64,000 bases of DNA. Origin: Candidatus Omnitrophota bacterium. GTDB lineage: Bacteria; Omnitrophota; Gorgyraeia; Zapsychrales; JBAZNR01. The position numbers and the translations under genes are program-made. Position 1 is the first letter of the stretch. Each line of letters opens with the position of its first letter. Below the pieces are notes generated by a model. That model saw nothing but the letters and a program-made list of their open reading frames with translations. It was not told the origin of the DNA and did no database searches. The DNA is taken from NCBI GenBank assembly GCA_041649175.1, contig JBAZNR010000003.1, forward strand, positions 15,449 through 79,448, read 5' to 3'. Shown piece by piece: positions 1-15,215 of this stretch.

Positions 1-429
1 TTGTTAACTAAAGTTTCCGTGAGCCGTTTTAGCCGCACCTTGGCAACCTTGACGCAAAGCGGTGTTCCAATTTTGGCGTCGCTGGATATTGTCGGAAAAA
101 CATGCGGCAATAAAGTCTTGGAAATTGCCGTTAACAATGTTCGAAATAATGTCCGCGAAGGAGAAAGCATTGCCGCTCCTCTTGTTAAAAGCAATGTTTT
201 TCCTCCCATGGTCACCAGGATGATTTCGGTTGGAGAAAAAACCGGTGAAATGGAAAAGATGCTTGTTAAAGTCGCTGATTTTTATGACGATCAAGTGGAT
301 GCGGCTGTTTCAGGGCTGACTAGCATGATCGAGCCTTTGATCATTGGTTTCTTGGGCGGCATTGTCGGATTTATCGTTGTGGCCCTGTTTTTACCGATCA
401 TTAAGATATCAACGATGATCCAGGCCTAG
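1..429 (+). CDS. pilC: Type II secretion / type IV pilus platform protein (GspF/PilC family), C-terminal part; 5' end truncated by the window edge
   Basis: The translation matches the GspF-domain C-terminus, including ATLTQSGVPIL, MISVGEKTGEMEKML and a terminal TM helix. The ORF runs off the 5' edge. Confidence 0.8.
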   Translation: MLTKVSVSRFSRTLATLTQSGVPILASLDIVGKTCGNKVLEIAVNNVRNNVREGESIAAPLVKSNVFPPMVTRMISVGEKTGEMEKMLVKVADFYDDQVDAAVSGLTSMIEPLIIGFLGGIVGFIVVALFLPIIKISTMIQA

Positions 430-482
430 AGGATTAACAAAGAGATGAATTTGGGAGCGAAATTTTTCAAGGAGGAAATAGC

Positions 483-953
483 GTGAATAAAAAATCGTTT
501 ACCATTATAGAGCTTTTGATCACCATTGTTGTGGCGGTTTTGGTTGTGACAGGGGTTTTAATGTCTTTGATCAACTCCATGGTTTTGGATGAACACACGG
601 CGCAACTTTCCATTGGCATGAATATTGCTAGAGCTAAAATTGAGGAGGTTTTAAGCCGCAGATCGGATTTTGACAATATTGTTTCTGTGCCATCTGGTAA
701 TGATCAGTCTGGGGTTAAGCTGACCGCGGATGGTGACGGCATGGTGGGGGCTTATCGAATTATTGTGAGAGGGGTCACTGGGTTTGCGAGTGAATTGAAA
801 ACCGTCAAAGTTGCCGTTTGCTGGAAAGGTAGGGGCAATAGGGTTGTCGGTGACTGCCGCATCGTTGATGATGGCACGGTTGAATGGATTAGCTTAGCCG
901 ATTTGAATCCCAAATCTGGCTGCGAGTTAGAAACAGCGATTGCCAAGAGGTAG
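483..953 (+). CDS. Prepilin-type N-terminal domain protein (pseudopilin/minor pilin), GTG start
   Basis: The N-terminus MNKKSFTIIELLITIVVAVLVV carries a class III signal with conserved Glu+5 and a hydrophobic helix. It has Ser rather than Gly at position -1. It sits directly after the GspF/PilC gene, as gspG-like pseudopilins do. Confidence 0.65.
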   Translation: MNKKSFTIIELLITIVVAVLVVTGVLMSLINSMVLDEHTAQLSIGMNIARAKIEEVLSRRSDFDNIVSVPSGNDQSGVKLTADGDGMVGAYRIIVRGVTGFASELKTVKVAVCWKGRGNRVVGDCRIVDDGTVEWISLADLNPKSGCELETAIAKR

Positions 954-993
954 TTTTTCGAGCAGTATCAGGCAAAAAAAGTAAAAAATAATT

Positions 994-1051
994 TCCCTTT
1001 TTCTACTTTATATATAGAATAAAAAGTATAAGTAGAAAAAGGGATTTTTTT
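994..1051 (+). terminator. Rho-independent terminator: 15-bp perfect stem, long AT loop, then a T7 run
   Basis: tccctttttctactt (994-1008) pairs perfectly with aagtagaaaaaggga (1030-1044) and is followed by ttttttt. Confidence 0.6.
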
Positions 1052-1088
1052 ATAAACAGAAAAGCCCTAAGGCTCATATGGGGAGCGT

Positions 1089-1787
1089 ATGCCGCAAATA
1101 AATCTTTTAGCACCGGGATTTAAAAAAAGAGAAGTGACGCCGTCTACGGCCTCTTTCTCTAAGGCGCAGGCGCAATCTCAATTCCAGCAGAAAACAGAGA
1201 GAGTGTATCCAGGGATCTCTTCAGGTGTCTTGGATGTCTTGCCGGCGGTGGGTTTTCGTTGCGCGATTTGCGGTGGCATTATTCTTGCCATCTGGAGCTT
1301 TTTCTTGGTCAATATTCCTGGAAATCAAAAAACACTGAAAGAGCTAGAAGTAAAAGTTTCTGTTCTCGCCACTAATCCCAAAGAGATAGAGCGCATCAGG
1401 ACTGAGCGCGTCATTCTCGAAAAAAAAGTTAACCTTATCGACAATCTTTCTTCTCGGAAATTTTTATGGTCCGAAAAATTGGCCCTGATCGCGGATCTTA
1501 TCCCAGATGGAGTATGGATCAATGAAATACGTTCAAGCAGTAAGAAAGATGCGGCAGCGGCTAAAGCTCCTCCCAGCGATGAAAAAACAGTTTTCACTAT
1601 AAAAGGCACGGCTGTTGCTTACAAGATCCAAGATGCGGTCGGTCTTATTAGCGACTTTATAAAGAATTTACAAGAAAACGCTGATTTTTCTAAAGATTTT
1701 CAAGAGATCAAACTTAATACAATCGCGAAGGGAACTGTAGGGAGCTTGGATGTTATGAAGTTTGATTTATTGTGCGAATCTAAATAA
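1089..1787 (+). CDS. pilN: PilN-like type IV pilus inner-membrane assembly protein
   Basis: An N-terminal INLL(A)P motif is followed by a single TM helix, then a periplasmic region with the W..KL..L...IPDGVWINEIR pattern. This region is shared with the unambiguous PilN at 12166. Confidence 0.6.
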   Translation: MPQINLLAPGFKKREVTPSTASFSKAQAQSQFQQKTERVYPGISSGVLDVLPAVGFRCAICGGIILAIWSFFLVNIPGNQKTLKELEVKVSVLATNPKEIERIRTERVILEKKVNLIDNLSSRKFLWSEKLALIADLIPDGVWINEIRSSSKKDAAAAKAPPSDEKTVFTIKGTAVAYKIQDAVGLISDFIKNLQENADFSKDFQEIKLNTIAKGTVGSLDVMKFDLLCESK

Positions 1788-1800
1788 ACCAATTAAATAA

Positions 1801-2403
1801 ATGGCCAGACCTCCAGCAAGAAAACAGGCAACACCTCTTGACGATTATCTGAATTTGGCGATCAAGCACTCGCCAATATTGGCTCCTATTTTGGTTGTGA
1901 TTTTGGGAATCGCTGTTTTAATTTGGCCGTCGTACCAGAAGCTTTCGACCATTAAAGCTAGCATCAAAGAGAAACAAGATATTTTAACAATGGTTGACAG
2001 AAGCAGCGCGGATGTTAGTAAAATGCAGAAAGAATTAGAGATTTTTAAGAACAAAGTTGTTGAATTCGAAACTCGATTACCCAAAAGAATTAAAACAAAC
2101 TTGATCATTGAGACCTTGCAGGAAATTACTGAAAAGGCGAGCCTTAAGTTTTCTTCGCTTGAGCCAACAACCATTCGGAAACATGTTATCGCGGAGACAA
2201 ATGATACTTTTGTAGAATTGCCCATCCGAGTTAGATTGCGGTGCGGGTACTATGAAATGGTTAATTTTCTTAAGAAAATTGAAACCGCAAAACAGCTTAT
2301 GAAAATATCTGATCTAGTCATTATTGATGATCCGGCTGCGGATTGGGATCATGGCATTGAATTTACGATCAGTGCTTTTTCGCGAGGTGAAAATGGCGAC
2401 TAA
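1801..2403 (+). CDS. pilO: PilO-like type IV pilus assembly protein
   Basis: One TM helix near the N-terminus is followed by a coiled-coil region. It sits in the PilO position after PilN, and its size and architecture match PilO/GspM. Confidence 0.6.
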   Translation: MARPPARKQATPLDDYLNLAIKHSPILAPILVVILGIAVLIWPSYQKLSTIKASIKEKQDILTMVDRSSADVSKMQKELEIFKNKVVEFETRLPKRIKTNLIIETLQEITEKASLKFSSLEPTTIRKHVIAETNDTFVELPIRVRLRCGYYEMVNFLKKIETAKQLMKISDLVIIDDPAADWDHGIEFTISAFSRGENGD

Positions 2404-2803
2404 AGCGAAAAAAAAAGTTATTTATTTTATGAGCTTAATGGCTTTTTTGTCCACTATTTTCTTCCCGACGAGAACAATGTTTGGCCAAGGAGAGAAAAGC
2501 GCGGCTTCAACAAAAAAAAGAGACCCTTTTGTTGCATTAGTTAATTCTCAAGGTAAAATAAAAGCTAAGGAAGAATTATTTCCTTCTATTGCGCCTAAGT
2601 CGCTTTCTATGAATATTGTATTAAAGGCAATTATCTGGGATGAGGCGAGGCCGCTAGCGATGATCAACAATAAGGTGTATGGACAGGGAAGCGAAATCAC
2701 AAAAGGACTTATAGTCGAGAAGATCAATCCTAATGATGTGGTTCTTAATGACAATGGAAATCCTGTCGTTATCCAACTACGCAAAGCGGTGAAAAATGAT
2801 TAA
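2393..2803 (+). CDS. pilP: PilP-like small periplasmic/lipoprotein-like protein (start moved to the internal ATG at 2393)
   Basis: It starts MATKAKKKVIYFMSLMAFLSTIFF, a signal-like hydrophobic segment, and its C-terminal region reads IAMINNKVYGQGSEI. It lies between pilO and the secretin. The ORF-track start at 2324 would overlap pilO by 80 nt. Confidence 0.45.
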   Translation: MATKAKKKVIYFMSLMAFLSTIFFPTRTMFGQGEKSAASTKKRDPFVALVNSQGKIKAKEELFPSIAPKSLSMNIVLKAIIWDEARPLAMINNKVYGQGSEITKGLIVEKINPNDVVLNDNGNPVVIQLRKAVKND

Positions 2804-4376
2804 AACAAAAAAAATTTATTTTCTGATGTGTACCGTGGTGATGCTCGCATTTCCGATGGTGTTGTCGGCGCAAGAAGAAGCGCGGCAAGTTGACGAAAAC
2901 ATGGTTAGTCAGCCTCAAGCGGCTTCTTCCGACGCAATAGCACCGATGGCGCCTTCCATTGCTGCGGATGTTGCAACGAATGCGGGTTCAGAAAATGTTC
3001 CTTCTGTAAACTCCCCGGGAACAGAAAAAAACGACGACAACCTTATTAGCGTTAATTTTGAAAATGTTGATATTCGTGACGTTATTCGCATCCTTGCTGA
3101 CAAGGGCCATGTGAATATGATCGTTGGGCCCGATGTTGCGGCGACGGTGAATATTCAGTTGAATAATATAAGCTGGGAAAAAGCCTTAGATGTTATCCTG
3201 ATGACGTACAGTTTGACATATAAAAAGGACGGCGATCTTATTCGTATTATGACGCTTGATCAGCTACAGGTTGAAGATGAGAAAGTTCCTTTAGCAACAA
3301 AAATCATTAAGCTAAATTTTGCTCGCGGCGGGGAAGTGAAAAGTAATTTCGAGAAGATGCTTAGCGCGCGTGGCAGGATTGATGTTGTCGAGCGTACAAA
3401 TAGCCTCATTATCACGGATCTACCCGATAATATCGCCAGAATCGAGGAAATTGCCGTAGAGCTTGATACAAGAACTCCTCAGGTCATGATCGAGGCTTTA
3501 TTGGCGGATGTGGTTGTTAGCCAAGACGATCAATTGGGTATTAACTGGGATATCGCTTGGCCGGATGGAGGAGCTCCCCAAAGAACTATTGAACAGGATT
3601 TTGGTTCTCTTGGCGCTCCGGGCGGGATCATCACATTTGGAACAACCATGCTAACCGATAAAGATCTCCATGCGACAATTGCTGCTTGGCAACGGCAATC
3701 AAAAGTAAATATTTTGGCCCATCCACAAATAATGACCTTGGATAACCTAGCGGCAAAGATCAGCTTAACAGAGGAAATTCCGTATCAACAACAGACTGAT
3801 TCAACTGAAGGAGGTAGCGTTGTTTCAACTTCGTTTAAAGAATCAGGGATTAATCTAACGGTTATGCCGCACATCACGACCAAAGATAATTACATTTACT
3901 TGACCATTGATGTCAAGCAAAGTTTTCGTTCCGGATTTACGGCCGATGATCAGCCAATTGTTGATAGTCGCTCTGCTCAAACAAATCTTTTGGTCAAGAA
4001 CCGCGAAACTGCGGTTATTGGGGGCTTGCGCAAAAAGAATGATACATTCACCGTTAATAAGCTTCCTATTTTGGGAGACATTCCTTTGATTGGTTCAGCT
4101 TTTCGCAAACGCGTTGAGGCACTTTCGGATATAGACTTAATGATTTTTGTGACCCCAACAATCGTTACGGATGTCAATTTAACCGACAAACAAGAAAATA
4201 CTTTGGAATTGTTTGAAGAAGAAACCGAGGATTGGGCTCATCAATTTGATCAGGTGAAGCAAAAAAAGCGAGAGGGAACAGCGGAGCCGAAATCGGCAAC
4301 AATCGGGGCGAAAGAAGATGCCGAGCCGGATCTTTTTTATCTCAAGCCGCCTGCGCTGCTTAACGAGGGACGTTAA
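2796..4376 (+). CDS. pilQ: Secretin (PilQ/GspD family) outer-membrane channel
   Basis: It has a signal peptide and an N0-like domain (NFENVDIRDVIRILADKGHVNMIV). The secretin C-domain follows (TAVIGGLRKKNDTF...LPILGDIPLIGSAFR...IFVTPTIV). Confidence 0.85.
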   Translation: MIKTKKIYFLMCTVVMLAFPMVLSAQEEARQVDENMVSQPQAASSDAIAPMAPSIAADVATNAGSENVPSVNSPGTEKNDDNLISVNFENVDIRDVIRILADKGHVNMIVGPDVAATVNIQLNNISWEKALDVILMTYSLTYKKDGDLIRIMTLDQLQVEDEKVPLATKIIKLNFARGGEVKSNFEKMLSARGRIDVVERTNSLIITDLPDNIARIEEIAVELDTRTPQVMIEALLADVVVSQDDQLGINWDIAWPDGGAPQRTIEQDFGSLGAPGGIITFGTTMLTDKDLHATIAAWQRQSKVNILAHPQIMTLDNLAAKISLTEEIPYQQQTDSTEGGSVVSTSFKESGINLTVMPHITTKDNYIYLTIDVKQSFRSGFTADDQPIVDSRSAQTNLLVKNRETAVIGGLRKKNDTFTVNKLPILGDIPLIGSAFRKRVEALSDIDLMIFVTPTIVTDVNLTDKQENTLELFEEETEDWAHQFDQVKQKKREGTAEPKSATIGAKEDAEPDLFYLKPPALLNEGR

Positions 4377-4378
4377 CA

Positions 4379-5740
4379 ATGACAGTGTTCAATAAAGATT
4401 TTTTTCTTTCTTCAGTTTTTTTCTTAGCGTTGATGCTGGCGGGTTATGCCCAGGCTTCCGATGAAATAACGAATGATGGATGGACGCAAAGCCTATCAAA
4501 TCTAAAAAGCAGTATGAGTGAGCTTTTAAAGCAAAACGATGCCCTCTCTGTTGAGAATGATCTCTTAAGAAAAAAGATCGTTGAATTGCAGTCAGAACTA
4601 AAAAAAGCTGCAGAGGCAAAAGAAAAATTATCGCAAGAGCCGCGACGGCTTAATGCTCTTTTAGATGAGAAAAATAAAGAAGCTAGCTTACTTGAGAAGA
4701 AAATTCAAGAGATTCAAGCGCAAGTTCAGCAGCTTAAAACGGATCAAGATGAGACGCAAAAGAGTATTGCTCAGCGTCAGGAAAAACAAAAACCGCTTGA
4801 GGCTGAAGTCAAAGGATGGAAAGGAAAAATAGATCAGCTTGAAAAGGAGCTGAAGCTGTCCAAGAGTGATAATCAAAACTTTCTTAAAAAAGCAGAAAAT
4901 GAGAAAAGCGAATTAAAGAAGCAGTTGGTGGATAGCGAAAAGAAGCTTGCTCGGGTTCAAAAGAATTTAGAAGAAAGCAAAAAACGATCCGCACAACCAT
5001 CAGTGGAATCGGTAGCTTTAGCGGCTGATCAAGAAAAAATGTCTCAGGAGCTGGAAAGATTAAGAAATTTGATTCAAACGCACACTCAGGAGAAGCAAAA
5101 GCTGCAGGAAGAGAACATCCGCATCAGCGATCAGTATAAATCAGACCTTGATAAATTAAATCAACAAATCGCTGAGCTCAAAAAGCAAAATCAAGAATTA
5201 GAAAGCGTAGCCATTGCTCCTTTACCAAAAGTGCCCTCAGCGGCAAAGGACAAGAAGATTGCCAGCCAAACGGCTTCTCTAAAAGAAGAGAATAGCGCGC
5301 TGAAGAATAAAGTTTCGGAATTGATGGGCTCAGTTGTTAAACTCAATCGCGATAAGGCGATGATCGAATCACTGCTTGATGTCCAAACAAAAACGTTGAG
5401 AAAGAAAACCGTTGGCAGTAAAAAATCCGTCGATCAAACAAATCACGAGCTTTTGGCTTATAAATATGCGGCCAATGGCGAATACGAGAAAGCCATCGAG
5501 GAGTATCAATTGGCGATCGCGGCACGTCCTAAAAATAAAGATCTCTACTATAATCTTGGGTTTGTTTATGACCAGCTTGGGAAAAACGATGAAGCCATTG
5601 CGAATTACAAGCAAGTCTTAAAACTCAATCCCAACGACAAAGAAGCGAACTACAACTTAGCGCAAATCTACAAGAAGCTTTCCGATACGGCATCATACCA
5701 ATACTATTATGACCGTTTTATTAAACTCAATAAAAGATAA
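4379..5740 (+). CDS. Secreted coiled-coil protein with C-terminal TPR repeats, embedded in the pilus module
   Basis: A signal peptide (LALMLAGYAQA|SDE) is followed by about 330 aa of K/E/Q-rich heptad-like coiled coil. Two or three TPR repeats close the protein (AYKYAANGEYEKAIEEYQLAIAARPKNKDLYYNLGFVYDQLGKNDEAIANYKQVLKLNP). Confidence 0.6.
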   Translation: MTVFNKDFFLSSVFFLALMLAGYAQASDEITNDGWTQSLSNLKSSMSELLKQNDALSVENDLLRKKIVELQSELKKAAEAKEKLSQEPRRLNALLDEKNKEASLLEKKIQEIQAQVQQLKTDQDETQKSIAQRQEKQKPLEAEVKGWKGKIDQLEKELKLSKSDNQNFLKKAENEKSELKKQLVDSEKKLARVQKNLEESKKRSAQPSVESVALAADQEKMSQELERLRNLIQTHTQEKQKLQEENIRISDQYKSDLDKLNQQIAELKKQNQELESVAIAPLPKVPSAAKDKKIASQTASLKEENSALKNKVSELMGSVVKLNRDKAMIESLLDVQTKTLRKKTVGSKKSVDQTNHELLAYKYAANGEYEKAIEEYQLAIAARPKNKDLYYNLGFVYDQLGKNDEAIANYKQVLKLNPNDKEANYNLAQIYKKLSDTASYQYYYDRFIKLNKR

Positions 5741-5774
5741 AAACTGCATTAGTTTTCTGCGGGGAGAATAGCCT

Positions 5775-6800
5775 GTGTTCGGTGGGAAAAAAATTGCAAA
5801 GAAATCGGATGTAGCTATTGGCCTTGATGTCGGGAATTTTGCCGTCAAGGTTGTCCAGCTTAGCCAAAAAGGCGATACTTTTAATTTAGATAGTTTTGGC
5901 TATGCAAAGATCAATATTGAGAAATTAGATGGAGTCGTAGAGGCTATCAAAAATGCTTGCGCTGAAGCGGGTATCACGCAAAAAAAGGTTAATGCGTCTA
6001 TTACGCCGGAAGGCGTTATCGTCAGGTATTTAACATTGCCTGAGATGAATACGGATGAGCTTAAAAAAGCGATGGAATTTGAGATCGAACGTTATGTTCC
6101 ATTTGAGAGAAAAGATGTTGTTAATGACTATATGATCCTTAAAGAACGTCCCGATTCTAAGAATATGAAGATTTTGCTTGTTGCGGCAAAAAAAGATTTT
6201 GTCGAAAATCGGATCAAGATCTTGCGAGAGGCGGGCTTGGATCCGGAAGTCATTACCATTGATGCTATCGTTTTGAAGGACACTTTTCAATTGAATTACC
6301 CTGAGAAGAATAATAAAGTTGTAGGGCTTCTTAATATCGGAGCTAAATCTTCAAATATTAATATTGTTAAAGGTCCGACATCTTATTTTATGCGCGACAT
6401 CCAATTGGGGGGCGATAATATTACGCACCTGCTCAAAGAAAAGATTGATATCGGCCTGGAAGAAGCGGAAAAGATCAAGTGCAGCCTTACGCTGGAAGAC
6501 AAGGAGAAATTCAAGATCATTGAGCCGGTTCTGGGAAATTTATTGAATGAAGTTTATCTGTCGTTTGACTATTACGAAAGTGAATTTGGGCTGGTCGTTG
6601 ATGAAGTTTTTGTTAGTGGCGGTACGGCTCGCTTAAAATGGCTAACCGATTTCTTAAAGGAAAATCTTAACAGAGAAGTTTCCGTCCTAAGCCCTGTTAA
6701 GAGGTTCACCGCAGCTCCAGCTGTCTCACAATCACGCCTTGAATTATTTTCTCCCTCGCTTGTTGTTGCTACCGGTCTCGCCTTAGAGAATTTTAGTTAA
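5775..6800 (+). CDS. pilM: PilM-like actin-fold type IV pilus assembly protein
   Basis: The N-terminus VAIGLDVGNFAVKVVQL is an actin-like phosphate-1 motif. Overall similarity is to FtsA/PilM, and it is paralogous to the ORF at 11102. Confidence 0.75.
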   Translation: MFGGKKIAKKSDVAIGLDVGNFAVKVVQLSQKGDTFNLDSFGYAKINIEKLDGVVEAIKNACAEAGITQKKVNASITPEGVIVRYLTLPEMNTDELKKAMEFEIERYVPFERKDVVNDYMILKERPDSKNMKILLVAAKKDFVENRIKILREAGLDPEVITIDAIVLKDTFQLNYPEKNNKVVGLLNIGAKSSNINIVKGPTSYFMRDIQLGGDNITHLLKEKIDIGLEEAEKIKCSLTLEDKEKFKIIEPVLGNLLNEVYLSFDYYESEFGLVVDEVFVSGGTARLKWLTDFLKENLNREVSVLSPVKRFTAAPAVSQSRLELFSPSLVVATGLALENFS

Positions 6801-6867
6801 AACCTATTTTGTTTTCATAAGTACATTGCTTTCTGACGTGATCGTTGTTATGTCTGAATTGGGCTAT

Positions 6868-6896
6868 TTGACAATCCCTCAAATGGATGTTATACT
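6868..6896 (+). promoter_or_regulatory. Sigma70-type promoter (TTGACA-N17-TATACT)
   Basis: A perfect -35 TTGACA at 6868-6873 is followed by a 17-nt spacer and a -10 TATACT at 6891-6896. It lies just upstream of the riboswitch-like element. Confidence 0.55.
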
Positions 6897-6914
6897 TCAA
6901 ACAAGTAAGAGCTG

Positions 6915-6990
6915 TTGATAAAGGCAAACTACTCGTAAGGGTAGGGCGCAAAACTATAGGGTCCCGAGTTAGCATATGGGATTGCCAGTT
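6915..6990 (+). promoter_or_regulatory. Candidate c-di-GMP-I (GEMM) riboswitch aptamer in the pilA leader
   Basis: GGCAAAC sits at 6923-6929. A 6-bp helix CTACTC/GGGTAG closed by a GTAA (GNRA) tetraloop spans 6929-6944. GGCGCAAAAC at 6945-6954 resembles the conserved ACGCAAAGC. TATAGGGTCC follows at 6955-6964, and GGGATTGCC at 6978-6986 resembles GGGUUACC of Vc2. Confidence 0.5.
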
Positions 6991-7110
6991 GCCAATAGGA
7001 TGTCCGGTATTATTTATATTATATTTCACTGGCAAAGTTAGTTTGCGGCCTATTCTTTCATAACGGGGAATGGGTTTTTTTATTTTGATAAATTTTTTCC
7101 TCAAAATCGC

Positions 7111-7139
7111 TTGACACATAGAAAGGAGGTTGATAACAT
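7111..7139 (+). promoter_or_regulatory. Possible second sigma70-like promoter proximal to pilA (TTGACA-N17-TAACAT)
   Basis: TTGACA is at 7111-7116 and TAACAT at 7134-7139. The -10 is weaker. Confidence 0.3.
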
Positions 7140-7776: not shown

Positions 7777-7809
7777 AAAGGGAAAAATGCAGCACGAATA
7801 TTTTTATGA

Positions 7810-7846
7810 ACTATCGATTTTTTAAAGTCGATAGTTTTGTTTTTGT
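7810..7846 (+). terminator. Rho-independent terminator (8-bp stem followed by a T-rich tract)
   Basis: actatcga (7810-7817) pairs with tcgatagt (7828-7835), then tttgtttttgt follows. Confidence 0.55.
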
Positions 7847-7902: not shown

Positions 7903-7921
7903 GCTTTCTAGGGAGCGCAAA

Positions 7922-8386
7922 ATGAGCAGGCAATTTCAAAATAAGAAAGTTTTGCTAAGGGGGCTAACGCTCGTAGAGACATTAGTCACAACTGTTGTTT
8001 TTTCTCTAGCTTTCTTGGGGGTCTTGTTCAGCTATGTGACTTGCCTTGAACTTAGTGAAATTGCTAAAAATTCATCCCAAGCCCTATTTGCTGTCAAATC
8101 ACAAATAGAAACAATAAAGAATACAAATTTTGATCAAGTAAAAACGGCATATAACAATACTTCATATGCAGCGGCTAATTTAGTGGGTATTGGAGTAAGC
8201 TATATCGATGATTCAAATCCAAGATTACTTTTCATTGTTAGCACGTTTTGTTGGCGGCAACCTAATGGCCGCGTAATCGGGGAGGACAGAAATCTCAACG
8301 CGCAACTCGATGCGGGAGAAGATCTAAATGGTAATGGCCGATTGGATTCTTTGGTGACAACGGTTGATTATATTTATGATCGGTGA
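7922..8386 (+). CDS. Minor pilin / prepilin-type N-terminal domain protein (start moved to the ATG at 7922 with an RBS)
   Basis: KVLLRGLTLVETLVTTVVFSLAF is a class III signal peptide with Gly-1 and Glu+5. Confidence 0.7.
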   Translation: MSRQFQNKKVLLRGLTLVETLVTTVVFSLAFLGVLFSYVTCLELSEIAKNSSQALFAVKSQIETIKNTNFDQVKTAYNNTSYAAANLVGIGVSYIDDSNPRLLFIVSTFCWRQPNGRVIGEDRNLNAQLDAGEDLNGNGRLDSLVTTVDYIYDR

Positions 8387-8392
8387 AAAACA

Positions 8393-9058
8393 ATGCAAGA
8401 AAACTCTTTTAAAAGAAATGTAAAAGGATTTACCCTAACCGAGGTTTTGATAACACTTGGCATCTTCTCTATTATGGGCGCGGGGATCTTTATCGTCTTA
8501 TCAGGCGGTAAATCAACCTGGTTTGACACGGATACGAGTATTGAATTGCAACAAGACTTAAGGATCGTTCTTGAGAAAACGACGCGAGAATTACATGAGT
8601 CTGGATTTGACAAAAACGGAGTTTTACAGGCTAATATTAACGATGGCGTTGGCCCGAATGGAACTGATACTCTAAGGTTTTCGATCCCTACCGTTTGCCA
8701 TGGCGGGGATAGCGTGGTTGATAGTAGCGGCGACGTTGTGCATTGGCGTGCTCCGTTAATCTGGGGCTGTACACAATCAAGCTGCATGGATGCTGACAAT
8801 GATTGTAATACCATTGATTATCAGTTTATAGAATATGGCGTGGATGCTCAAGATCAGTTTGTGCGAAAAGTGATCAGCGGGGCGGGCCTTGTTGTGAGGC
8901 AAGATATTTTCGCCAATAATATTAGTGACTTTCAAGTTGATGCCACGGTGGATGGAGGGCTTGTTACGTTAAGTATTAGCGCGCAGAAAAACTCACCGAC
9001 CGGAAGAGCATTGTCGGCAGCTGCCAGCATGGCCGTATATTTAAGGAATCGAGGGTAA
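8393..9058 (+). CDS. Minor pilin (PilW/PilV-like) with prepilin N-terminal domain
   Basis: RNVKGFTLTEVLITLGIFSIMGAGIFIV is a class III signal. The C-terminal region has Cys pairs. Confidence 0.7.
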   Translation: MQENSFKRNVKGFTLTEVLITLGIFSIMGAGIFIVLSGGKSTWFDTDTSIELQQDLRIVLEKTTRELHESGFDKNGVLQANINDGVGPNGTDTLRFSIPTVCHGGDSVVDSSGDVVHWRAPLIWGCTQSSCMDADNDCNTIDYQFIEYGVDAQDQFVRKVISGAGLVVRQDIFANNISDFQVDATVDGGLVTLSISAQKNSPTGRALSAAASMAVYLRNRG

Positions 9059-9062
9059 AGCT

Positions 9063-10766
9063 ATGAATAAGAAAAATACAAAAGGGACAGTTTTGATCGT
9101 TTCTCTGATGGCTGTTACGGTCCTCCTTATTTTGGGTGCGATGTTTATCGTTCGAGCCATCTCAGAAAAAGCTGCTTCTGACCGTGAACGTATGCTGACC
9201 CAAGCTTTTTATTTGGCCGACGGTGGTAGTCAGGTTGGAATTAATCAGATGGATGTATTGATCAATACGAATTTGATGGCCACTGTCAACAATACAAATC
9301 CGCAAGTTATTGCGAATGATGCAGCAGGTTATGTTGCTTCTGGTGATGGTTTAGGTTTTTTGATCCAGTATGCGCGCGATGGTGGCGCAGCACAATTTAT
9401 ATTGAATGGTGCGCAAGCACGTTATACGGGATCGGTTATTGCGGCGGGAAGCGGAACGTATCAGCACAGCATTATTGTTACCGAGAAGGGCAATCCGATT
9501 GCTGTAACTCCGGAGCAATGGGATTTTCCGTACTATTATCGGATTGAAACAACCGGAACTGTCGGTGGCGTTGTGCGAAAAATAGCCTTAACGGGCGATT
9601 TTACAGTTCGTGTCCAGAGAGATAATTTTGCGCGTTTTGCCTTATTCACAGATCATCACAGCTTGCCAAGCGGCGGGACAGTCTGGTTTACGAGCCGGAC
9701 AAATTTTTCTGGGCCGCTCCATACAAACGAACGCTATAGTTTTGCGTTTAATCCAAGTGGAACTTTTGACGGCATGGTTACCCAACATCATAATAGCGCC
9801 AGGTTTCATAATGGTGGGTCGTCTATTTTATCGGATGCGGATCAAAATGCTTCCATTGATGTTCCGGTATTTAATAGTGATTATGAACGTGGCGTTTCTG
9901 AAGTCAATCTGGAGTCATCTGTTCAGCAACAAGATCTCATTGACCAAGCCAGGGGCACCGACACAACGCCGGGTAACGGCATTTTTGTTGCCAATAATGG
10001 GAGCAATCTTATTGGAGGAATTTTTGTTAGAGGCGACTGCAATGTCAATATGAGCGTTAATGGAAGCGGAAACGCTGTTTATACGATCACGCAAGGCGCG
10101 ACAACAAAAATTGTCACGGTCGATATTTCCGGGAATCAAACAACTGTTCAGACGGTTGCAGGCCCGATCCAAACTTTTTCCGGACTTCCGGATGGCGTTG
10201 ATGATGTTGGAACTATTCTTTATGTTGATGGAGCGATTTCCAGCCTCGGAGGAACGGTTCAGCGAGACACAAAGCTAACAGTTGCCAGTCAAAATGATGT
10301 TATTTTGACGAACCATGTCATGTATGAAGATTATACTCCGGCTGTCGGAACGCCGGGAACTCCGGGATATGTTGCCCCACATGCTGACGACACGAATAAC
10401 ATGCTGGGCATTGTTTCCTGGGGAGGCGACGTGAGGATCGGCACAGTAGCTCCGGACGACATAAATATTCATGGCTCTGTTATGGCGCGTAACGGTGTTC
10501 TTACCGTCGATAACTATGACGATACGGCTGTTGGATCTCGCGGTGTTACAACGCTTTTAGGAGGGTCTATTACTCAGTTCTATGGTGCGTTTGGACAATT
10601 TAATAGCGTAACGGAACAGCAGATTTCTGGTTATGGCCGCAATTTTGTATATGACAATAGAATGTCTTTAGGGGCTGCGCCTCCGTATTTCCCGAGTATG
10701 CGAACATTCATTGCATTTACAAATGACTTAACCGATAAAATCACTTGGCAAGAGGGAGGATTTTAA
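9063..10766 (+). CDS. Large PilX-N-domain pilus-associated protein (possible tip adhesin, beta-rich repeat region)
   Basis: The N-terminus KGTVLIVSLMAVTVLLILGAMFIVRA resembles PilX N-terminal domains, which are hydrophobic and lack Glu+5. It is followed by about 500 aa rich in G/T/S/N/D. It sits in a minor-pilin operon. Confidence 0.55.
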   Translation: MNKKNTKGTVLIVSLMAVTVLLILGAMFIVRAISEKAASDRERMLTQAFYLADGGSQVGINQMDVLINTNLMATVNNTNPQVIANDAAGYVASGDGLGFLIQYARDGGAAQFILNGAQARYTGSVIAAGSGTYQHSIIVTEKGNPIAVTPEQWDFPYYYRIETTGTVGGVVRKIALTGDFTVRVQRDNFARFALFTDHHSLPSGGTVWFTSRTNFSGPLHTNERYSFAFNPSGTFDGMVTQHHNSARFHNGGSSILSDADQNASIDVPVFNSDYERGVSEVNLESSVQQQDLIDQARGTDTTPGNGIFVANNGSNLIGGIFVRGDCNVNMSVNGSGNAVYTITQGATTKIVTVDISGNQTTVQTVAGPIQTFSGLPDGVDDVGTILYVDGAISSLGGTVQRDTKLTVASQNDVILTNHVMYEDYTPAVGTPGTPGYVAPHADDTNNMLGIVSWGGDVRIGTVAPDDINIHGSVMARNGVLTVDNYDDTAVGSRGVTTLLGGSITQFYGAFGQFNSVTEQQISGYGRNFVYDNRMSLGAAPPYFPSMRTFIAFTNDLTDKITWQEGGF

Positions 10767-11089
10767 TGTCAGAACAATCTCCAAGTACTCATCCGATGCG
10801 AAAGGTTTTTTTGATCATAGCCATTGTTTTAGTCATGGTCATGTTAGCTGTGAGTATGTTTATGAAAAGATCAGTGGAAGACGCGGAAGTTTCTTATCGA
10901 CCTGAAAAAGCTCAAACAGGTTTAGAAGTAAAGCCTATCGTGAATAATAGTCAGATAGAAAAGAAAAGCGTAGCACCTTCTGTCAGCGTTCCCAAGAAAT
11001 CTGCTGGAAAGGCTGCAAAAAGAGACGCTCAACCCGAAAAAGAAATTATCTATGAAGCTCCCCTAAAGAGCAATATTTTGATACAATAG
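10766..11089 (+). CDS. Hypothetical small single-pass membrane protein (ATG overlapping the upstream stop as TAATG)
   Basis: A TM helix (VFLIIAIVLVMVMLAVSMF) is followed by a K/E/P-rich, apparently disordered tail. I found no homology I recognise. Confidence 0.35.
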   Translation: MSEQSPSTHPMRKVFLIIAIVLVMVMLAVSMFMKRSVEDAEVSYRPEKAQTGLEVKPIVNNSQIEKKSVAPSVSVPKKSAGKAAKRDAQPEKEIIYEAPLKSNILIQ

Positions 11090-11101
11090 TTTTCATCAGC
11101 A

Positions 11102-12175
11102 ATGAAAAGCCTACTAAATAAATATATTTCTTTTACCAACCGATTTGCTCCTAAGAGAGTCATTGAACCGTTCGTTGGCCTTGATATTGGCGCGAGCTCA
11201 TGCAAAGCTGTTGAGCTTGTCGTATGTGAAGATTCTTCGCGGGAAATTCTCAATTGGGCCGTGGAACCCTTAAACGAACTTAATGTCATTCAAAGCGTAA
11301 GGAAAGTCTTAGCTAAGCTTAACACAACTACGAAAAATTTTGCGACAGCAATTTCCGGGCAAGGAACGTTAGTCCGTTATATCGATATGCCCAGAATGTC
11401 CTTAGAAGACTTGCGCCGGTCTGTTGATGTGGAAGCTGACAAGCATTTTCCTTTTCCTAAAGATAAGATTTATACAGATTGTTGTATTCTTGATCCTCAA
11501 GGAAAAGACAGCAAGATGGCTGTTCTTATTGCGGCGGCGAAAAAAGAGGTCATTGCCCAGCGGCTCAAAATGCTTTCTGAGATCAATCTTCCGTCTGATT
11601 TTGTCGGTATCAACGCCATTGCTCTCGTCAATGCTTTTAATACCTTTCCGCCCCAAAACCTGGGCCAGAATTCTGCGCCACAATCTGGAAAATCCAACAT
11701 CATTGCTATTTTAGACATCGGCGACGTGGTGAGTAATTTGATCATCACAAAAGATAGCGTGCCCAGATTTACTCGGGATATTTTCATTGGAGGGCGGGAG
11801 CTTAACCGGCGCATTGCCAACGCTCTTAACGTCAACATGGAAGAAGCCGAAAAGATCAAATGCCAGCCCCAAGATAGATCTGAAAATGTTTTGCTTGCAT
11901 GCGATTCAACGCTCATTAATTTAGCATCCGAAATACGCCTTTCCTTTGATTATTTAGCGACGGAAAATAATATGCAAGTTAGCCGATTGTTTGCTACCGG
12001 AGGGTCGGCCATGTTTTCCGGCATTACTGACTTTCTTGCGAAGAATCTTGAGATCCCGGTTGAATTGTGGGATCCGTTTCTCTCTTTAAAATTATCACCT
12101 CAAGTTTCCCGATCAGAAATTGAAAAGAATTCGAGCCAACTGGCTGTAGCCCTAGGACTTGCCTTATGCTCCTAA
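11102..12175 (+). CDS. pilM: PilM type IV pilus assembly protein (second copy)
   Basis: FVGLDIGASSCKAVEL is an actin-like fold motif. It immediately precedes pilN with a 10-nt overlap. Confidence 0.8.
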   Translation: MKSLLNKYISFTNRFAPKRVIEPFVGLDIGASSCKAVELVVCEDSSREILNWAVEPLNELNVIQSVRKVLAKLNTTTKNFATAISGQGTLVRYIDMPRMSLEDLRRSVDVEADKHFPFPKDKIYTDCCILDPQGKDSKMAVLIAAAKKEVIAQRLKMLSEINLPSDFVGINAIALVNAFNTFPPQNLGQNSAPQSGKSNIIAILDIGDVVSNLIITKDSVPRFTRDIFIGGRELNRRIANALNVNMEEAEKIKCQPQDRSENVLLACDSTLINLASEIRLSFDYLATENNMQVSRLFATGGSAMFSGITDFLAKNLEIPVELWDPFLSLKLSPQVSRSEIEKNSSQLAVALGLALCS

Positions 12176-12768
12176 TTGACATTAATTTACTTCCGCCTGA
12201 TCTGCGAAAAAAGCGCGGTTCAAAAACCAGCAAGGACGCGATTGGAAATATCACCAATATACCTAAAGAAATGGTCTTTGGCTTGGTGGGCGGCCTTTTC
12301 TTTCTTTTAGTTGTTTTTAACTTGCTTTTGTTTGTGGTGACGTGTTTTAAATGGGTCCAATATTCTCGGGGGAATAAGCAGTGGGAGATCATCGCTCTCG
12401 ATAAAAAAAAGGTTGATAGCGTTTTAGGAGAGATGCGTTCTCTCCAAAGCAAAATTGCTTCAGTAGAGAAAGTTACAACGGGAAAAAGAATTTGCTGGGC
12501 TCAGAAGCTAAATGAATTGAGTAATAATATTCCCAAAGGGGTTTGGCTGAATAAGATTTCCTTAAGCGAAAAAGTGCTTTTGATCGATGGAAGCTCTGTG
12601 TCAAAAGTTGGTGAAGAAATGATCAGTGTCGGGAATTTTGCGTCAAATCTAAAGAATCAAAAGACATTTATGAATGGCTTAAAAAATGTTGAAGTAGGCT
12701 CTATTCAGCGCCGAAAAGTTCAATCTATTGAGATCGCGGATTTCTTGATTACGGTTAAATTGCAATGA
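12166..12768 (+). CDS. pilN: PilN type IV pilus assembly protein (second copy)
   Basis: The N-terminus MLLIDINLLPPDLRKKR carries the INLLP PilM-binding motif. It is followed by a TM helix and a periplasmic domain. Confidence 0.85.
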   Translation: MLLIDINLLPPDLRKKRGSKTSKDAIGNITNIPKEMVFGLVGGLFFLLVVFNLLLFVVTCFKWVQYSRGNKQWEIIALDKKKVDSVLGEMRSLQSKIASVEKVTTGKRICWAQKLNELSNNIPKGVWLNKISLSEKVLLIDGSSVSKVGEEMISVGNFASNLKNQKTFMNGLKNVEVGSIQRRKVQSIEIADFLITVKLQ

Positions 12769-13382
12769 AAAAAATTATCCCAGATAAGATCTTAAATATT
12801 TTATTGCAGGCAACAGAAAAAAATGGCCAATATATCCTCATCGGCGTTTTACTTGGCATCTTTCTTTTAATGTATGCTATTGTTACGCGCCCTATTTTAA
12901 ACAATCTTACGAAGATCAGCCCTAAAATTACTTTGCTTTCTAAGGATTATCGACAAGCTTTGTCTGATATTAAGAATGTTGAAAATTATCAAGCCCAGGT
13001 TGTGCAATTTCGAGAAAAAATGAAAACGGTCGGGCTCAAGATTCTTTCTAAAGAAGAAATTCCCGCGATTCTAGAAAATATCTCGAGACTTGCCGGGCAA
13101 TCTAAGGTGCACATTAGTCAGATCATGCCGCTTAAAGAATCACAGGAATTAATCCTATCGAATGATGAAGGGAAGTACTACTCGCTTCCTATTTTGGTGA
13201 ATGCCCGCGGAGGTTACCATGATATTGGGCGTTTTTTTAATAAAATAGAGAACGATAAGATCTTTATGAGCGTGATAGACTTTGATATTGCGGCAACCAG
13301 CGATGATCCCTTAAAACATTTGGCCAAAATTACGATTAAAGCATTTATCCTCGAGAAAATCGAAGGCAAGGAGGCAAAATGA
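12765..13382 (+). CDS. pilO: PilO type IV pilus assembly protein (second copy)
   Basis: It has a TM helix and a coiled-coil domain, and sits in the canonical position with a 4-nt overlap with pilN. Confidence 0.7.
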   Translation: MKKIIPDKILNILLQATEKNGQYILIGVLLGIFLLMYAIVTRPILNNLTKISPKITLLSKDYRQALSDIKNVENYQAQVVQFREKMKTVGLKILSKEEIPAILENISRLAGQSKVHISQIMPLKESQELILSNDEGKYYSLPILVNARGGYHDIGRFFNKIENDKIFMSVIDFDIAATSDDPLKHLAKITIKAFILEKIEGKEAK

Positions 13383-13723
13383 ACATCCTTGCTTTTATGG
13401 CAGTATTTTTCGTTTCGGTTCTTGTCTGGGCCCAAGATGCTGATTTTACGTATAGCGACCAGGGGAAGCGTGATCCTCTTTGGCGGCTCGTTACTCCCAG
13501 CGGATCGATTATTAATTATGATTCCGATGTCCTTGTTTCGGATATGATTTTAGAAGGGATCATTTTTGATCCTAGCGGCAAAAGCCTCGCTATTATAAAC
13601 GGCAATGTCGTTGAGCAAAATCGTCGTATTGGCCCGTTTGTTGTTTCAAAGATCGAAGCAAAGCGAGTAACGTTAACCAAGGGGCAAGAAAATTTTGTTT
13701 TAGAATTGAAAAAGGAGGAATGA
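13379..13723 (+). CDS. pilP: PilP-like small secreted protein (second copy)
   Basis: It has a signal peptide (MNILAFMAVFFVSVLVWAQDA) and is small and beta-rich. It lies between pilO and the secretin with a 4-nt overlap. Confidence 0.55.
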   Translation: MNILAFMAVFFVSVLVWAQDADFTYSDQGKRDPLWRLVTPSGSIINYDSDVLVSDMILEGIIFDPSGKSLAIINGNVVEQNRRIGPFVVSKIEAKRVTLTKGQENFVLELKKEE

Positions 13724-13724
13724 G

Positions 13725-15215
13725 ATGACACAAAAAGCGGTCATCGCGATATTTATTCTTTGCTTAACCTGTTTTGCGGTTTACGCGCAAGATAGCGGTG
13801 AAGCTGTCAGCTCTACGGATGAATCTTCCGTTTCAGCTGTCGCCGAAGCAACCGATAATGAAAGCGCGTTAGCGCCATCTGATGGCGAGCAAGCAGTTTT
13901 CCCCGGAACAATAGAGCCGACAGTTTCACTGGAAACAAATCCGGCTACCCCGGAGCTTTCAACATTGCCTGATCCCGGGCATGTTACTCTTGATTTTCGC
14001 GATGCTGAGATACGAAATGTTTTAAGGATCTTAGCGTATAAAAGCGGTGTTAACATTGTTGCCGGCCCGGAAGTAACGGGCTTAGTAACGATCCAGCTTA
14101 ACAATGTTCCCTGGGAAGAAGCCCTAAAAGTCATTCTCGAAACATATGGCTACGGATATGACAAAAGAGGGAACATCATCTTGGTCACAACGGTAGATAA
14201 TCTTAAGAAAAGGCGGGAAGATAATCAATTATTGTCGGAGCAAGAGCCGCTGATGACCAAGACATTTGTCCTTAATTATGCAAAGGCAGAGGAAATTGTC
14301 TCTTCCATTGAGAAAATGAAGACGGCACGCGGCAGCGTGAACTTTGATTCCCGGACGAACTCTATCATCCTTCGCGATACTTCAAGCAACCTTGCGCTGA
14401 TCAGTGATATCATGCCTTCTTTAGACGCCACAACACCCCAGGTTTTAATTGAGGCAAAAATAATCGAAGCAACGCTTAGCAATACGGAGAATTTGGGTAT
14501 TGACTGGGTGGCTAAAGCGGCAGCATCGGGGTCAGAGCGGCCTACGATCTTTCCTTTTACGACGATATCTGAAAATAGGTATCTTCCTGATAATATTCCG
14601 GCGGCAGGGGCTGATTTATTTACTTATGGAACGCTTGATTTCTCGCAATTTTCGGCCGTTTTAGAATTGCTTAAAAACAGGTCAGATACCAACATTCTTT
14701 CTAATCCTCGCATTGTCACTTTAGATAATCAAAAAGCAAGCATTACGGTGGGGACACAATATCCCATTCCGACATATACGTACAACGAAGAGCAGGCCAG
14801 GCTCCAGGTGTCGGGCTGGGAATATAAAGATATTGGAATTATTTTTGAGGTAACGCCCCATGTTAATAATGCGGGGTTTGTTACGATGGATATTCAACCC
14901 AAGGTAACGGCGATCTTGGATTATGTAACTGTTGAAAACACTTCGCTTCCCAGGCTCAGCTCAGAATCTGCCACGACAAAAGTGATGATCAAAGATGGTT
15001 ATACTCTTGTCATCGCGGGGCTCATCAAAAATCAGGCAACCGACGTTAAGAAAAAGATCCCTTTTCTGGGGGATATTCCTATCGCGGGTTTAGCATTTCA
15101 GAAAAGTGAAAAGACAATGACTAAAACGGATCTGTTGATTTTTATGACGCCACATATCATTACTGCCAACGAGCCTGTGGTTTTGAAAGAAGCAACAACC
15201 ACGCCGAAGCCATAG
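13725..15215 (+). CDS. pilQ: Secretin PilQ (second copy)
   Basis: It has a signal peptide and an N0 domain (DFRDAEIRNVLRILAYKSGVNIVAGPEVTGLVTIQLNNVPWEEALKVIL). The secretin domain follows (VIAGLIKNQATDVKKKIPFLGDIPIAGLAFQ...IFMTPHII). Confidence 0.85.
   Translation: MTQKAVIAIFILCLTCFAVYAQDSGEAVSSTDESSVSAVAEATDNESALAPSDGEQAVFPGTIEPTVSLETNPATPELSTLPDPGHVTLDFRDAEIRNVLRILAYKSGVNIVAGPEVTGLVTIQLNNVPWEEALKVILETYGYGYDKRGNIILVTTVDNLKKRREDNQLLSEQEPLMTKTFVLNYAKAEEIVSSIEKMKTARGSVNFDSRTNSIILRDTSSNLALISDIMPSLDATTPQVLIEAKIIEATLSNTENLGIDWVAKAAASGSERPTIFPFTTISENRYLPDNIPAAGADLFTYGTLDFSQFSAVLELLKNRSDTNILSNPRIVTLDNQKASITVGTQYPIPTYTYNEEQARLQVSGWEYKDIGIIFEVTPHVNNAGFVTMDIQPKVTAILDYVTVENTSLPRLSSESATTKVMIKDGYTLVIAGLIKNQATDVKKKIPFLGDIPIAGLAFQKSEKTMTKTDLLIFMTPHIITANEPVVLKEATTTPKP

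Follow-up and report, generated by a model that had tools for sequence, protein, structure and literature searches.

Introduction

The closest described counterparts of the locus analysed here are the type IVa pilus (T4aP) machines of Pseudomonas aeruginosa, Myxococcus xanthus and Thermus thermophilus, the mannose-sensitive haemagglutinin (MSHA) pilus of Vibrio, the helper proteins of secretins, and the cyclic di-GMP (c-di-GMP) riboswitches upstream of pilin genes. The locus itself, in which two sets of pilM, pilN, pilO, pilP and pilQ genes flank a group of pilin genes, belongs to a Candidatus Omnitrophota bacterium (assembly GCA_041649175.1, contig JBAZNR010000003.1, positions 15,449 to 79,448; this whole stretch of 64,000 nucleotides is the window below). 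In Thermus and Pseudomonas, the INLL segment of PilN is the part bound by PilM. The Vibrio MSHA locus (mshIJKL-mshMN-mshEGF) encodes a second T4a-like machine beside the T4aP; it begins with a GGDEF/EAL gene, has a tetratricopeptide repeat (TPR) gene, mshN, downstream of the secretin gene, and its ATPase carries a c-di-GMP-binding MshEN domain. Known secretin helpers include the TPR lipoproteins PilF, PilW and Tgl, outer-membrane proteins that are TPRs almost throughout and serve PilQ, and GspS and AspS, which bind the S domain of GspD, the secretin of the type II secretion system (T2SS).

The Omnitrophota are uncultured, mostly ultra-small and thought to be predators or parasites, and the T4a pilus ranks with the most widespread of their genes for host contact (PMC10066038), being near-universal in the phylum with ‘at least one copy’ (PMC10066038). 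The literature searched gave no description of dual pilus cores, of a rotated gene order, of a conserved secretin tail motif or of a pilus riboswitch in Omnitrophota. For the window, the best-supported reading of the genes and their relatives is that the two sets would be two T4aP cores of separate descent within the phylum, the first of them carried in a conserved cassette with pilM at its end.

Two diverged cores of the T4aP type

The first 15.2 kb of the window form one co-directional (+) block of intact open reading frames (ORFs) with even base composition. A first reading, made from the letters of this stretch (the sequence-only reading), had recognised two PilM/N/O/P/Q sets around the pilin genes; both sets are complete, all of these genes were recovered in place as intact (+) ORFs, and the description proved right wherever it could be checked. 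Set 1 (1089-6800) runs PilN-PilO-PilP-PilQ-coiled-coil/TPR-PilM, which confirms the order first noticed, with pilM after the secretin gene and a coiled-coil/TPR gene between the two. Set 2 is canonical, M-N-O-P-Q, with overlaps of 10, 4 and 4 nt and then a 1-nt gap, in agreement with the 4 to 10-nt overlaps first described. Family scans (Pfam and NCBIfam on the window proteins, judged against the model cutoffs) identified in set 1 PilN1, with an N-terminus MPQINLLAP and one transmembrane segment (1089-1787; Pfam PilN PF05137 26.2 bits, cutoff 22.8), PilO1 (1801-2403; Pfam PilO 41.8 bits, cutoff 22), PilP1, a predicted periplasmic protein of the PilP/GspC-HR type with a signal peptide (2393-2803; T2SSB 29.5 bits, cutoff 28.4; T2SSC 20.6 bits), the secretin PilQ1 or Q1 (2796-4376; Secretin 145.6 bits) and PilM1 (5775-6800; PilM_2 201.1 bits; TIGR01175 206.6 bits, cutoff 133). 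The PilN, PilO and PilP assignments of set 1, which the sequence-only reading had left for such models to decide, were not contradicted by the PilN, PilO and T2SSB scores. Set 2 consists of PilM2 (11102-12175; PilM_2 174.4 bits; TIGR01175 168.4 bits, cutoff 133), PilN2, with an N-terminus MLLIDINLLPP (12166-12768; Pfam PilN 36.1 bits), PilO2 (12765-13382; Pfam PilO 58.1 bits), PilP2 (13379-13723; no Pfam match, homologous to PilP1 by BLASTP, E 1.5e-9) and the secretin PilQ2 or Q2, which has a short C-terminus (13725-15215; TIGR02515 297.5 bits, cutoff 284.35); both sets lie on the (+) strand throughout. Identity between the sets is 31% for M, 22% for N, 25% for O, 27% for P and 33% for Q, so these are old paralogues, and the secretins and PilMs had been rightly seen as diverged. 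A recent duplication or an assembly artefact is ruled out by this 22-33% identity, by the even composition and by the same order in independent assemblies; the rotated order of set 1 is not an assembly accident.

Compared with the T4aP of P. aeruginosa, M. xanthus and T. thermophilus, the locus has all five core families twice over (the PilPs as PilP-like proteins), together with PilB, PilC, PilT, a major pilin, minor pilins and a PilX-like protein. Further features in common with the T4aP are secretins built of N0, one N1 and the core, an actin-like PilM that is a protein of its own, and the INLL N-terminus of PilN. The locus differs in that the core is duplicated, in the position of pilM and of the coiled-coil/TPR gene in set 1, in having secretins without AMIN domains, PilPs without a lipobox and a Q1 tail with a conserved end motif, and in that Q1 and both PilBs score just under the NCBIfam equivalog cutoffs. 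Q1 reached 273.9 bits on PilQ (cutoff 284.35) compared to 214.2 on GspD, and Q2 reached 297.5 bits on PilQ compared to 257.7 on GspD (GspD cutoff 351.35). Against the PDB, the best match of Q1 was the V. cholerae competence-pilus PilQ (6w6m, 179.8 bits; best GspD, 121.3 bits) and that of Q2 was the Myxococcus PilQ (207 bits; best GspD, 160 bits). Q1 and Q2 are built alike, an STN/N0 domain, a single Secretin_N (N1) domain detected in each, and the core; a GspD secretin has N0 to N3 and an S domain. PilM1 and PilM2 matched only T4aP PilM structures (Myxococcus, Pseudomonas and Thermus; 2ych and 5eou are among the matches) and no GspL, with PilM1 scoring above PilM2.

The PilP of a T4aP is a lipoprotein of the inner membrane whose beta-sandwich HR domain binds PilQ N0. 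PilP1 and PilP2 have an RDPF motif in common and neither has a lipobox Cys; the Pfam PilP model matched neither, and the T2SSB cutoff was passed by PilP1 alone. A profile of 18 P1/P2 orthologues found six PDB sequences at E <= 10, all of them GspC-HR, GspB or PilP, though these matches were weak (E 8e-4 for the best, 3oss_C, to 1.4). Aligned by hhalign to the single E. coli GspC and HofP sequences, the same profile gave probabilities of 4% and 0.7%, single-sequence templates being uninformative. PilB, PilC and PilT all had T4a models as their best matches: the two PilBs scored 624.7 and 637.1 bits on TIGR02538, their best family (cutoff 675.65), full-length PilC scored 436 bits on the Myxococcus PilC model, 411 on the Thermus PilC model and 399 on GspF, and a PilT/PilU-family retraction ATPase (57204-58250, +) scored 468.8 bits on TIGR01420 (cutoff 319.1). 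None of the GspD, GspL, GspM, GspC and MshL models reached its cutoff in the window scans. Judged by their sequences (PilQ over GspD for the secretins, PilM structures for the PilMs, T4a matches for the motors), both sets are of the T4aP type, not the T2SS type, and the early suggestion that one of them might be T2SS- or competence-like found no support from the family models.

The genes upstream of set 1 agree with this. They were read from L001, the wider locus on a 1.2-Mb metagenome contig, found by exact-protein look-up (loci and proteins of the survey carry L and P numbers), in which the 7 kb before the window contain, in order, FtsW, a HAMP-GAF-GGDEF protein, MshEN (148 aa), PilB (577 aa), PilB (568 aa), MshEN (153 aa) and full-length PilC (403 aa), the C-terminus of this platform protein opening the window (1-429, +; Pfam T2SSF 105.9 bits). 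The sequence-only reading had asked what ATPase genes lie there, and the answer is two tandem pilB genes; no Gsp pseudopilin set was found among the genes upstream of set 1. It had also allowed that set 1 might be the tail of a standard T2SS operon, which is ruled out by these upstream genes and by Gsp models that are all under cutoff.

A conserved cassette with pilM last

Related loci were collected from one genome per GTDB species, from a metagenome collection and from context look-ups of single homologues, and the ORFs of ~100 loci were labelled by phmmer and by hidden Markov models built from the window proteins. The closest relatives of PilM1 and Q1 were all labelled Candidatus Omnitrophota. 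Set 1 proved to be part of a nine-gene cassette, MshEN-PilC-minor-pilin-like-N-O-P-Q-coiled-coil/TPR-M, the order of which is identical in at least 10 species-level genomes (PilM1 identity 54-67%). The cassette order was found in L002/6, L004, L007-L010 and L012-L015 and, from metagenomes, in L023-L032 and L060, the last of which keeps it at only 33% PilM identity. In the window lineage the cassette is placed between the tandem pilB genes and pilA, and it adjoins pilA, the minor pilins and set 2 in L006-L009, L012, L014, L023 and L026. Elsewhere it stands alone beside unrelated genes (L004, L013, L015, L029-L032), and there it has one minor-pilin-like gene, with neither a major pilin nor an ATPase. 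The metagenome-assembled genome RA.bin136 has the cassette on one contig (L015) and set 2 on another (L016, in the order pilA-TPR-minor pilins-DUF4900-M2N2O2P2Q2-RNase G), and where the sets are apart in this way the pilA/minor-pilin/DUF4900 block goes with set 2. The canonical M-N-O-P-Q followed by rng-rplU-rpmA-obg, as in set 2, was the commonest Omnitrophota arrangement in the fetched loci. The anatomy of the two sets and their conservation across genomes are well supported. The sequence-only reading had proposed two distinct filament machines. The sets are separable (RA.bin136, and at least three genomes with the cassette alone), which favours two separate conduits, and two trans-envelope conduits are likely; the T2SS or competence character suggested for one of them was not supported by the family models.

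The position of pilM was also explored among the fetched loci. Out of 87 classifiable pilM genes, 61 lie ahead of pilN and 25 after the secretin gene, in a sample that is biased to PilM1 relatives and includes duplicates. The rotated order first called unusual is present in set 1 as described and is recurrent in Omnitrophota. Outside the cassette, pilB-pilB-pilC-pilA-...-N-O-P-Q-M-rng is the arrangement of L019, L038 and L039, in which this is the only set at the locus, and L020 and L104 have N-O-P-Q-M; M-N-O-P-Q-M occurs in L017 and Q-M-N in L036. Given these last two arrangements in relatives, tandem duplication and loss is the simplest route to the rotated order, which would most likely have arisen in that way. 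A small gene of the MerR helix-turn-helix type was seen directly 5' of pilN in L020 (3726-3923) and L104 (19-276), both of which are N-O-P-Q-M loci without the MshEN-PilC head.

In all pilM-last sets PilN has kept the INLL N-terminus (M-x-Q-INLL-x-P in the alignment of orthologues). Since PilN1 retains this segment, PilM1 probably still clamps PilN1, and the PilM-PilN contact is probably not changed by the rotated gene order.

Neighbour-joining trees were rooted on E. coli proteins. The secretin tree has a Q1-type clade, in which a coiled-coil/TPR gene or pilM always follows, and a Q2-type clade, in which the arrangement is always M-N-O-P-Q-rng, and the two clades lie closer together than either does to E. 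coli HofQ. In the PilC tree the MshEN-linked cassette PilCs form their own clade, apart from the canonical PilB-PilC-pilA PilCs; the window PilC is in the cassette-type clade, which always has a stand-alone MshEN gene before it. The PilM tree sets a PilM2 clade apart. With a single origin of the pilM-last order the secretin tree is compatible, and the PilM tree is not clean. A one-to-one pairing of the two PilBs with the two sets was unsupported, as the tandem PilB pair is also present where the locus has a single set (L019, L047, L064).

The coiled-coil/TPR protein and the secretin tail

Alone among the cassette members, the coiled-coil/TPR protein (4379-5740, +) has no known counterpart in the T4aP. 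It carries a signal peptide, a coiled coil of ~300 residues that makes up two thirds of the protein, and ~3 TPRs at residues 356-450 (TPR families matched residues 354-439 in the family scans). The TPR part is the best conserved when orthologues are compared, and in the PDB the protein matched generic or designed TPRs only. Its gene follows that of Q1, which has a C-terminal extension of ~65 residues (~nt 4167-4373) ending in DLFYLKPPALLNEGR. Secretins with the coiled-coil/TPR gene next to them run 45-80 residues beyond the core and end in [FILY]-x-[LI]-[RK]-P-P plus 0-6 residues. This motif is present in 20/20 loci in which the coiled-coil/TPR gene is next to the secretin gene (~15 distinct, including the distant L060) and in 0/38 other secretins (26 canonical and followed by RNase G, 5 followed by pilM, and 7 ending at a contig end). 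Among secretins encoded directly before pilM, four (L017, L019, L038, L039) end in ...YIY(S/V)W, outer-membrane-protein-like, and the fifth (L020) has another ending. The motif was found in 47 of the 120 best Q1 homologues, including all full-length matches at or above ~49% identity. Some other related secretins carry an EAxKFRxSL-type tail.

In one relative the two proteins are joined. P0183 (654 aa; L104 1832-3796) holds a secretin, a Lys/Glu-rich coiled coil and TPRs in one polypeptide, and it lies in a locus that reads PilN-PilO-PilP-like-[fusion]-PilM. The strict co-occurrence of tail and coiled-coil/TPR gene and this natural fusion together indicate a physical partnership between the secretin C-terminus and the coiled-coil/TPR protein, which is probably a secretin partner. 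A different joined protein was also observed among the homologues, P0219, a secretin homologue of 691 aa that also includes a T2SSB (PilP-like) domain and may be a PilP-secretin fusion.

The arrangement resembles that of known pilotins in that the accessory gene adjoins the secretin gene, that the accessory protein has a TPR domain, that a secretin extension covaries with the accessory gene and that a fusion protein exists. It is unlike them in the ordinary signal peptide and in the ~300 residues of coiled coil that precede about three TPRs. The pilotin models remained far from their cutoffs (TIGR02521, PilW, 36 bits compared to 154; Tgl, 28.5 compared to 225), and since coiled coil makes up most of the sequence and a lipobox is usually absent, the protein is not classed here as a pilotin.

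Predicted c-di-GMP control

The pilM1-pilA gap of 510 nt holds a sigma-70-like promoter match (TTGACA-17-TATACT with an upstream TG; 6868-6896, +; a consensus match, and the best in the region), a c-di-GMP-I class riboswitch aptamer in the pilA leader (6914-6997, +; Rfam RF03167 60.6 bits, cutoff 59, E 8e-12) and a terminator-like hairpin of 12 pairs with a T-run (7047-7086, +; terminator scan), a candidate expression platform for the riboswitch. Eleven related loci that were fetched carry the aptamer at the pilM1-pilA junction as well (L006 and L023 are one contig); each passes RF03167 or RF01051, and the aptamer stems show compensatory changes in 7 of 17 pairs. For several close relatives the best model is the canonical RF01051, and for the window copy it is the GGC variant RF03167 (clan CL00126). 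The aptamer was not found in the examined loci without a pilM1-pilA junction (L016, L017, L019, L074, L098). It resembles the known c-di-GMP-I (GEMM-I) riboswitches upstream of pilin genes in its score above the gathering threshold, its compensatory stems, its place in a pilA leader and the hairpin 3' of it, and it is unlike them in that the window copy fits the GGC variant best. A minus-strand ORF lies over the riboswitch region (6793-7119, -; 108 aa, no family match) and is in all likelihood no real gene.

Two stand-alone MshEN proteins (148 and 153 aa; L001 1921-2367 and 5956-6417) flank the tandem pilB genes upstream of the window. On the MshEN motif model NF053729 (cutoff 38) they score 62.3 and 59.7 bits and PilB1 scores 45.4; PilB2 has no match. 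The c-di-GMP motif of MshEN consists of two tandem 24-residue copies of RLGxx(L/V/I)(L/V/I)xxG(L/V/I)(L/V/I)xxxxLxxxLxxQ with a 5-residue spacer (PMC5013675), and by eye both stand-alone proteins keep the 24-residue spacing, the 5-residue spacer and the LG...Q residues. A HAMP-GAF-GGDEF protein heads the locus in the window lineage. In stand-alone cassettes a giant protein of >1300 aa with GGDEF, AAA_16 and HEAT parts was seen directly 5' of MshEN-PilC (L004 1-2991; L020 15752-17967, -). The riboswitch, the GGDEF gene, the two stand-alone MshENs and the MshEN-type PilB plainly tie the locus to c-di-GMP, and the locus is predicted to be under c-di-GMP control.

The locus has several features in common with the MSHA system: a second core beside a canonical T4aP, a TPR gene after the secretin gene, an MshEN domain and a leading GGDEF gene. 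Unlike MSHA, the locus is without MshM (an ExeA-like ATPase), has PilM and PilN as separate proteins instead of an MshI type, and has MshEN also as stand-alone proteins. Membership of the MSHA family is ruled out by the MshL scores of the secretins (TIGR02519; Q1, 102.7 bits; Q2, 148.6 bits; cutoff, 250.2).

Pilin genes and the rest of the window

Between PilC and set 1 lies a minor-pilin-like gene, psp1 (483-953, +), with a class III signal peptide KKS↓FTIIELL that includes Glu5 (N_methyl 18.6 bits, below cutoff). Ten aligned orthologues keep [G/S/A]↓[F/L]T-x-x-E, and psp1 and the minor pilin at 7922-8386 are paralogues. When the profile of its orthologues was compared to the PDB, solved pilins matched the N-terminal helix only, and the globular domain stays unclassified. 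The terminator that the sequence-only reading had placed before set 1 exists as an AT-rich hairpin (994-1044) with a T7 run (994-1051, +; terminator- or attenuator-like) between psp1 and pilN1, where the fold of 954-1088 has -30.5 kcal/mol (z = -3.6); it is not listed by the consensus terminator scan of the region. As the psp1-pilN gap is only 13-15 nt in L012 and L014, this hairpin is not conserved across the cassettes.

The pilin block proper starts with the major pilin PilA (7310-7705, +; KG↓FTLVEIM; N_methyl 38.1 bits, with N-terminal matches to NCBIfam PilA, GspG and ComGC), behind which is a terminator-like hairpin (7808-7837, +; terminator scan). It continues with a PilV/GspI-like minor pilin (7922-8386, +; weak N_methyl, ComGE and GspI matches, position kept in relatives), a second minor pilin (8393-9058, +; N_methyl 30.6 bits), a DUF4900 protein with a hydrophobic, PilX-like N-terminus (9063-10766, +; PF16241 57.6 bits; kept upstream of set 2 in relatives) and a small single-pass membrane protein directly 5' of pilM2 (10766-11089, +; no family match), weak orthologues of which are at the same place in L006, L007, L009 and L016. 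Many relatives have, between pilA and the minor pilins, a membrane protein of ~500-650 aa with C-terminal TPRs and an N-terminus ...N-x-F-V-W-D-D... (L012 12443-14398, L014 13194-15143, L016 4715-6679, L017 956-2854, L019 4413-5966). It is not in the window pilin block, and it might be a pilin-modifying enzyme.

Set 2 is thus closely flanked by pilA, the minor pilins and DUF4900 on its 5' side and by rng-rplU-rpmA-obg on its 3' side, the RNase G gene (rng) beginning at 15237, right after it. The remaining window genes are housekeeping genes (obg, proBA, rpsA, tyrS, nusG, rplKAJL-rpoBC and onwards); a look-up of the protein encoded at 49744-51102 gave no recorded entry. The PilT/PilU gene is 42 kb downstream of the pilus locus and has an aminotransferase gene on one side and an isocitrate/isopropylmalate dehydrogenase gene on the other. 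No prepilin peptidase PilD was found among the annotated window genes. This locus has only one PilC, of the cassette type, for its two sets.

Discussion

It is fairly probable that the locus encodes two separate T4aP trans-envelope cores, with a cassette that is mobile as a block, shared pilins and motors, and c-di-GMP control. In each core PilM would be cytoplasmic, PilN and PilO would sit in the inner membrane, PilP in the periplasm, and PilQ would form the outer-membrane secretin. Set 2 would be the common canonical core of the phylum and set 1 the core of a cassette that moves as one block and would bring its own PilC, one minor pilin, a c-di-GMP-receptor-like MshEN and a secretin partner. 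The coiled-coil/TPR protein would most likely dock by its TPR domain on the C-terminal extension of Q1 and may act as an assembly or stabilising partner, and the supply of pilins would be under its own promoter, c-di-GMP-I riboswitch and terminator. As the stand-alone cassette has no major pilin or ATPase, the cores probably share pilins and the PilB and PilT motors. A more specific form of this reading is put forward tentatively, as a possibility that we regard as somewhat doubtful: the cassette might be a c-di-GMP-gated second port that borrows the canonical pilins and motors, and Q1 might be assembled or braced by a type of periplasmic partner not described before, a long coiled-coil strut with a TPR head that captures the [FILY]-x-L-[RK]-P-P tail of Q1.

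Several observations weigh against two cores with a dedicated secretin partner and c-di-GMP control. Conserved intact ORFs are the ground for passing from two cores to two functional machines, and the contact of TPR and tail is drawn from co-occurrence and one fusion protein. Most orthologues of the coiled-coil/TPR protein have an ordinary (signal peptidase I-type) signal and are without a lipobox, in which they depart from the TPR pilotins that are known. The single PilC of the locus may serve both sets, or that of set 2 may lie elsewhere. In the PilM tree the pilM-last genes are not monophyletic, the PilM of the canonical locus L005 being nested among them with 75% support, and the trees used neighbour-joining and only E. 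coli outgroups. For the c-di-GMP control, the best model of the window aptamer is the GGC variant RF03167, the ligand of which was not established in the literature searched, and the first Arg of each c-di-GMP motif is replaced in both stand-alone MshENs, so that binding is not assured.

The two sets could instead be alternative isoforms of one machine, in which the same pilins, PilC, PilB and PilT work in either port according to the c-di-GMP level or the cell pole. The sole PilC in the locus is of the cassette type, the cassette is without its own ATPase or major pilin, the tandem PilB of the single-set loci (L019, L047, L064) shows that the ATPases do not pair one-to-one with the sets, and the riboswitch is exactly at the cassette-pilA junction, all as this would have it. 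The isoform explanation overlaps that of two separate cores, from which it differs mainly in emphasis; further PilC or pilin genes may exist outside the locus, and the cassette retains its own PilC and pilin-like gene in every genome, which indicates some autonomy. As a full account of the locus it is rather improbable.

Equally unlikely is a T2SS-like machine made of set 1 and its cassette, which would build a short pseudopilus from psp1 and pass substrates through Q1, with set 2 as the true pilus. The single minor-pilin-like gene of the stand-alone cassette, which has no major pilin, would suit such a machine, as would a Q1 C-terminal extension with a dedicated partner gene (compare the S domain of GspD). 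MshE-type N-domains occur also on T2SS ATPases (PMC5013675), and giant genes of Omnitrophota are often flanked by secretion and pilus genes. PilO1 matches GspM/XpsM of NCBIfam, if weakly (49.4 bits, under the cutoff of 60), and PilP1 matches T2SSB and T2SSC; every Gsp model, however, is below its cutoff (GspD 214 compared to 351, GspM 49 compared to 60, T2SSL 18.8 compared to 25.5 and T2SSC 20.6 compared to 27), and no GspG/H/J/K set is at the locus. Q1 has the PilQ build of N0 and one N1 and prefers PilQ structures to GspD (180 compared to 121 bits), and PilM1 is a separate actin-like PilM, not GspL, that beats PilM2 on PilM structures. Furthermore, a Q1-type pilM-last set is the sole set beside pilB-pilB-pilC-pilA in L019, L038 and L039, where it presumably makes a pilus. 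That set 1 is a competence (DNA-uptake) pseudopilus machine is very improbable, for although the best solved structure for Q1 is the V. cholerae competence-pilus PilQ (6w6m, 179.8 bits) and HofQ models match too, Q2 matches the same proteins about equally, a similarity general to the PilQ family, and no comEA, comEC or dprA is beside the cassette in any locus examined.

With two separate T4aP cores as the preferred reading, the cassette is a variant, specific to its lineage, of a machine that is well known, and not a new kind of system. New here are the link between the tail motif and the coiled-coil/TPR protein, the secretin-coiled-coil-TPR fusion and the c-di-GMP-I riboswitch before pilA. 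The basic picture of how a type IV pilus works is unchanged by these findings. That PilN keeps its N-terminus intact in the rotated pilNOPQ-pilM order indicates that the near-universal adjacency of pilM and pilN is not a functional requirement, and the co-occurrence of tail and TPR with a natural fusion gives a clean lead, open to test, towards a new accessory factor of secretins. For the phylum, a large subgroup of Omnitrophota would have, by separate inheritance, a second pilus core that brings its own PilC, secretin partner and c-di-GMP wiring, and this second core offers concrete targets for how these cells switch between attachment, motility and possibly secretion.

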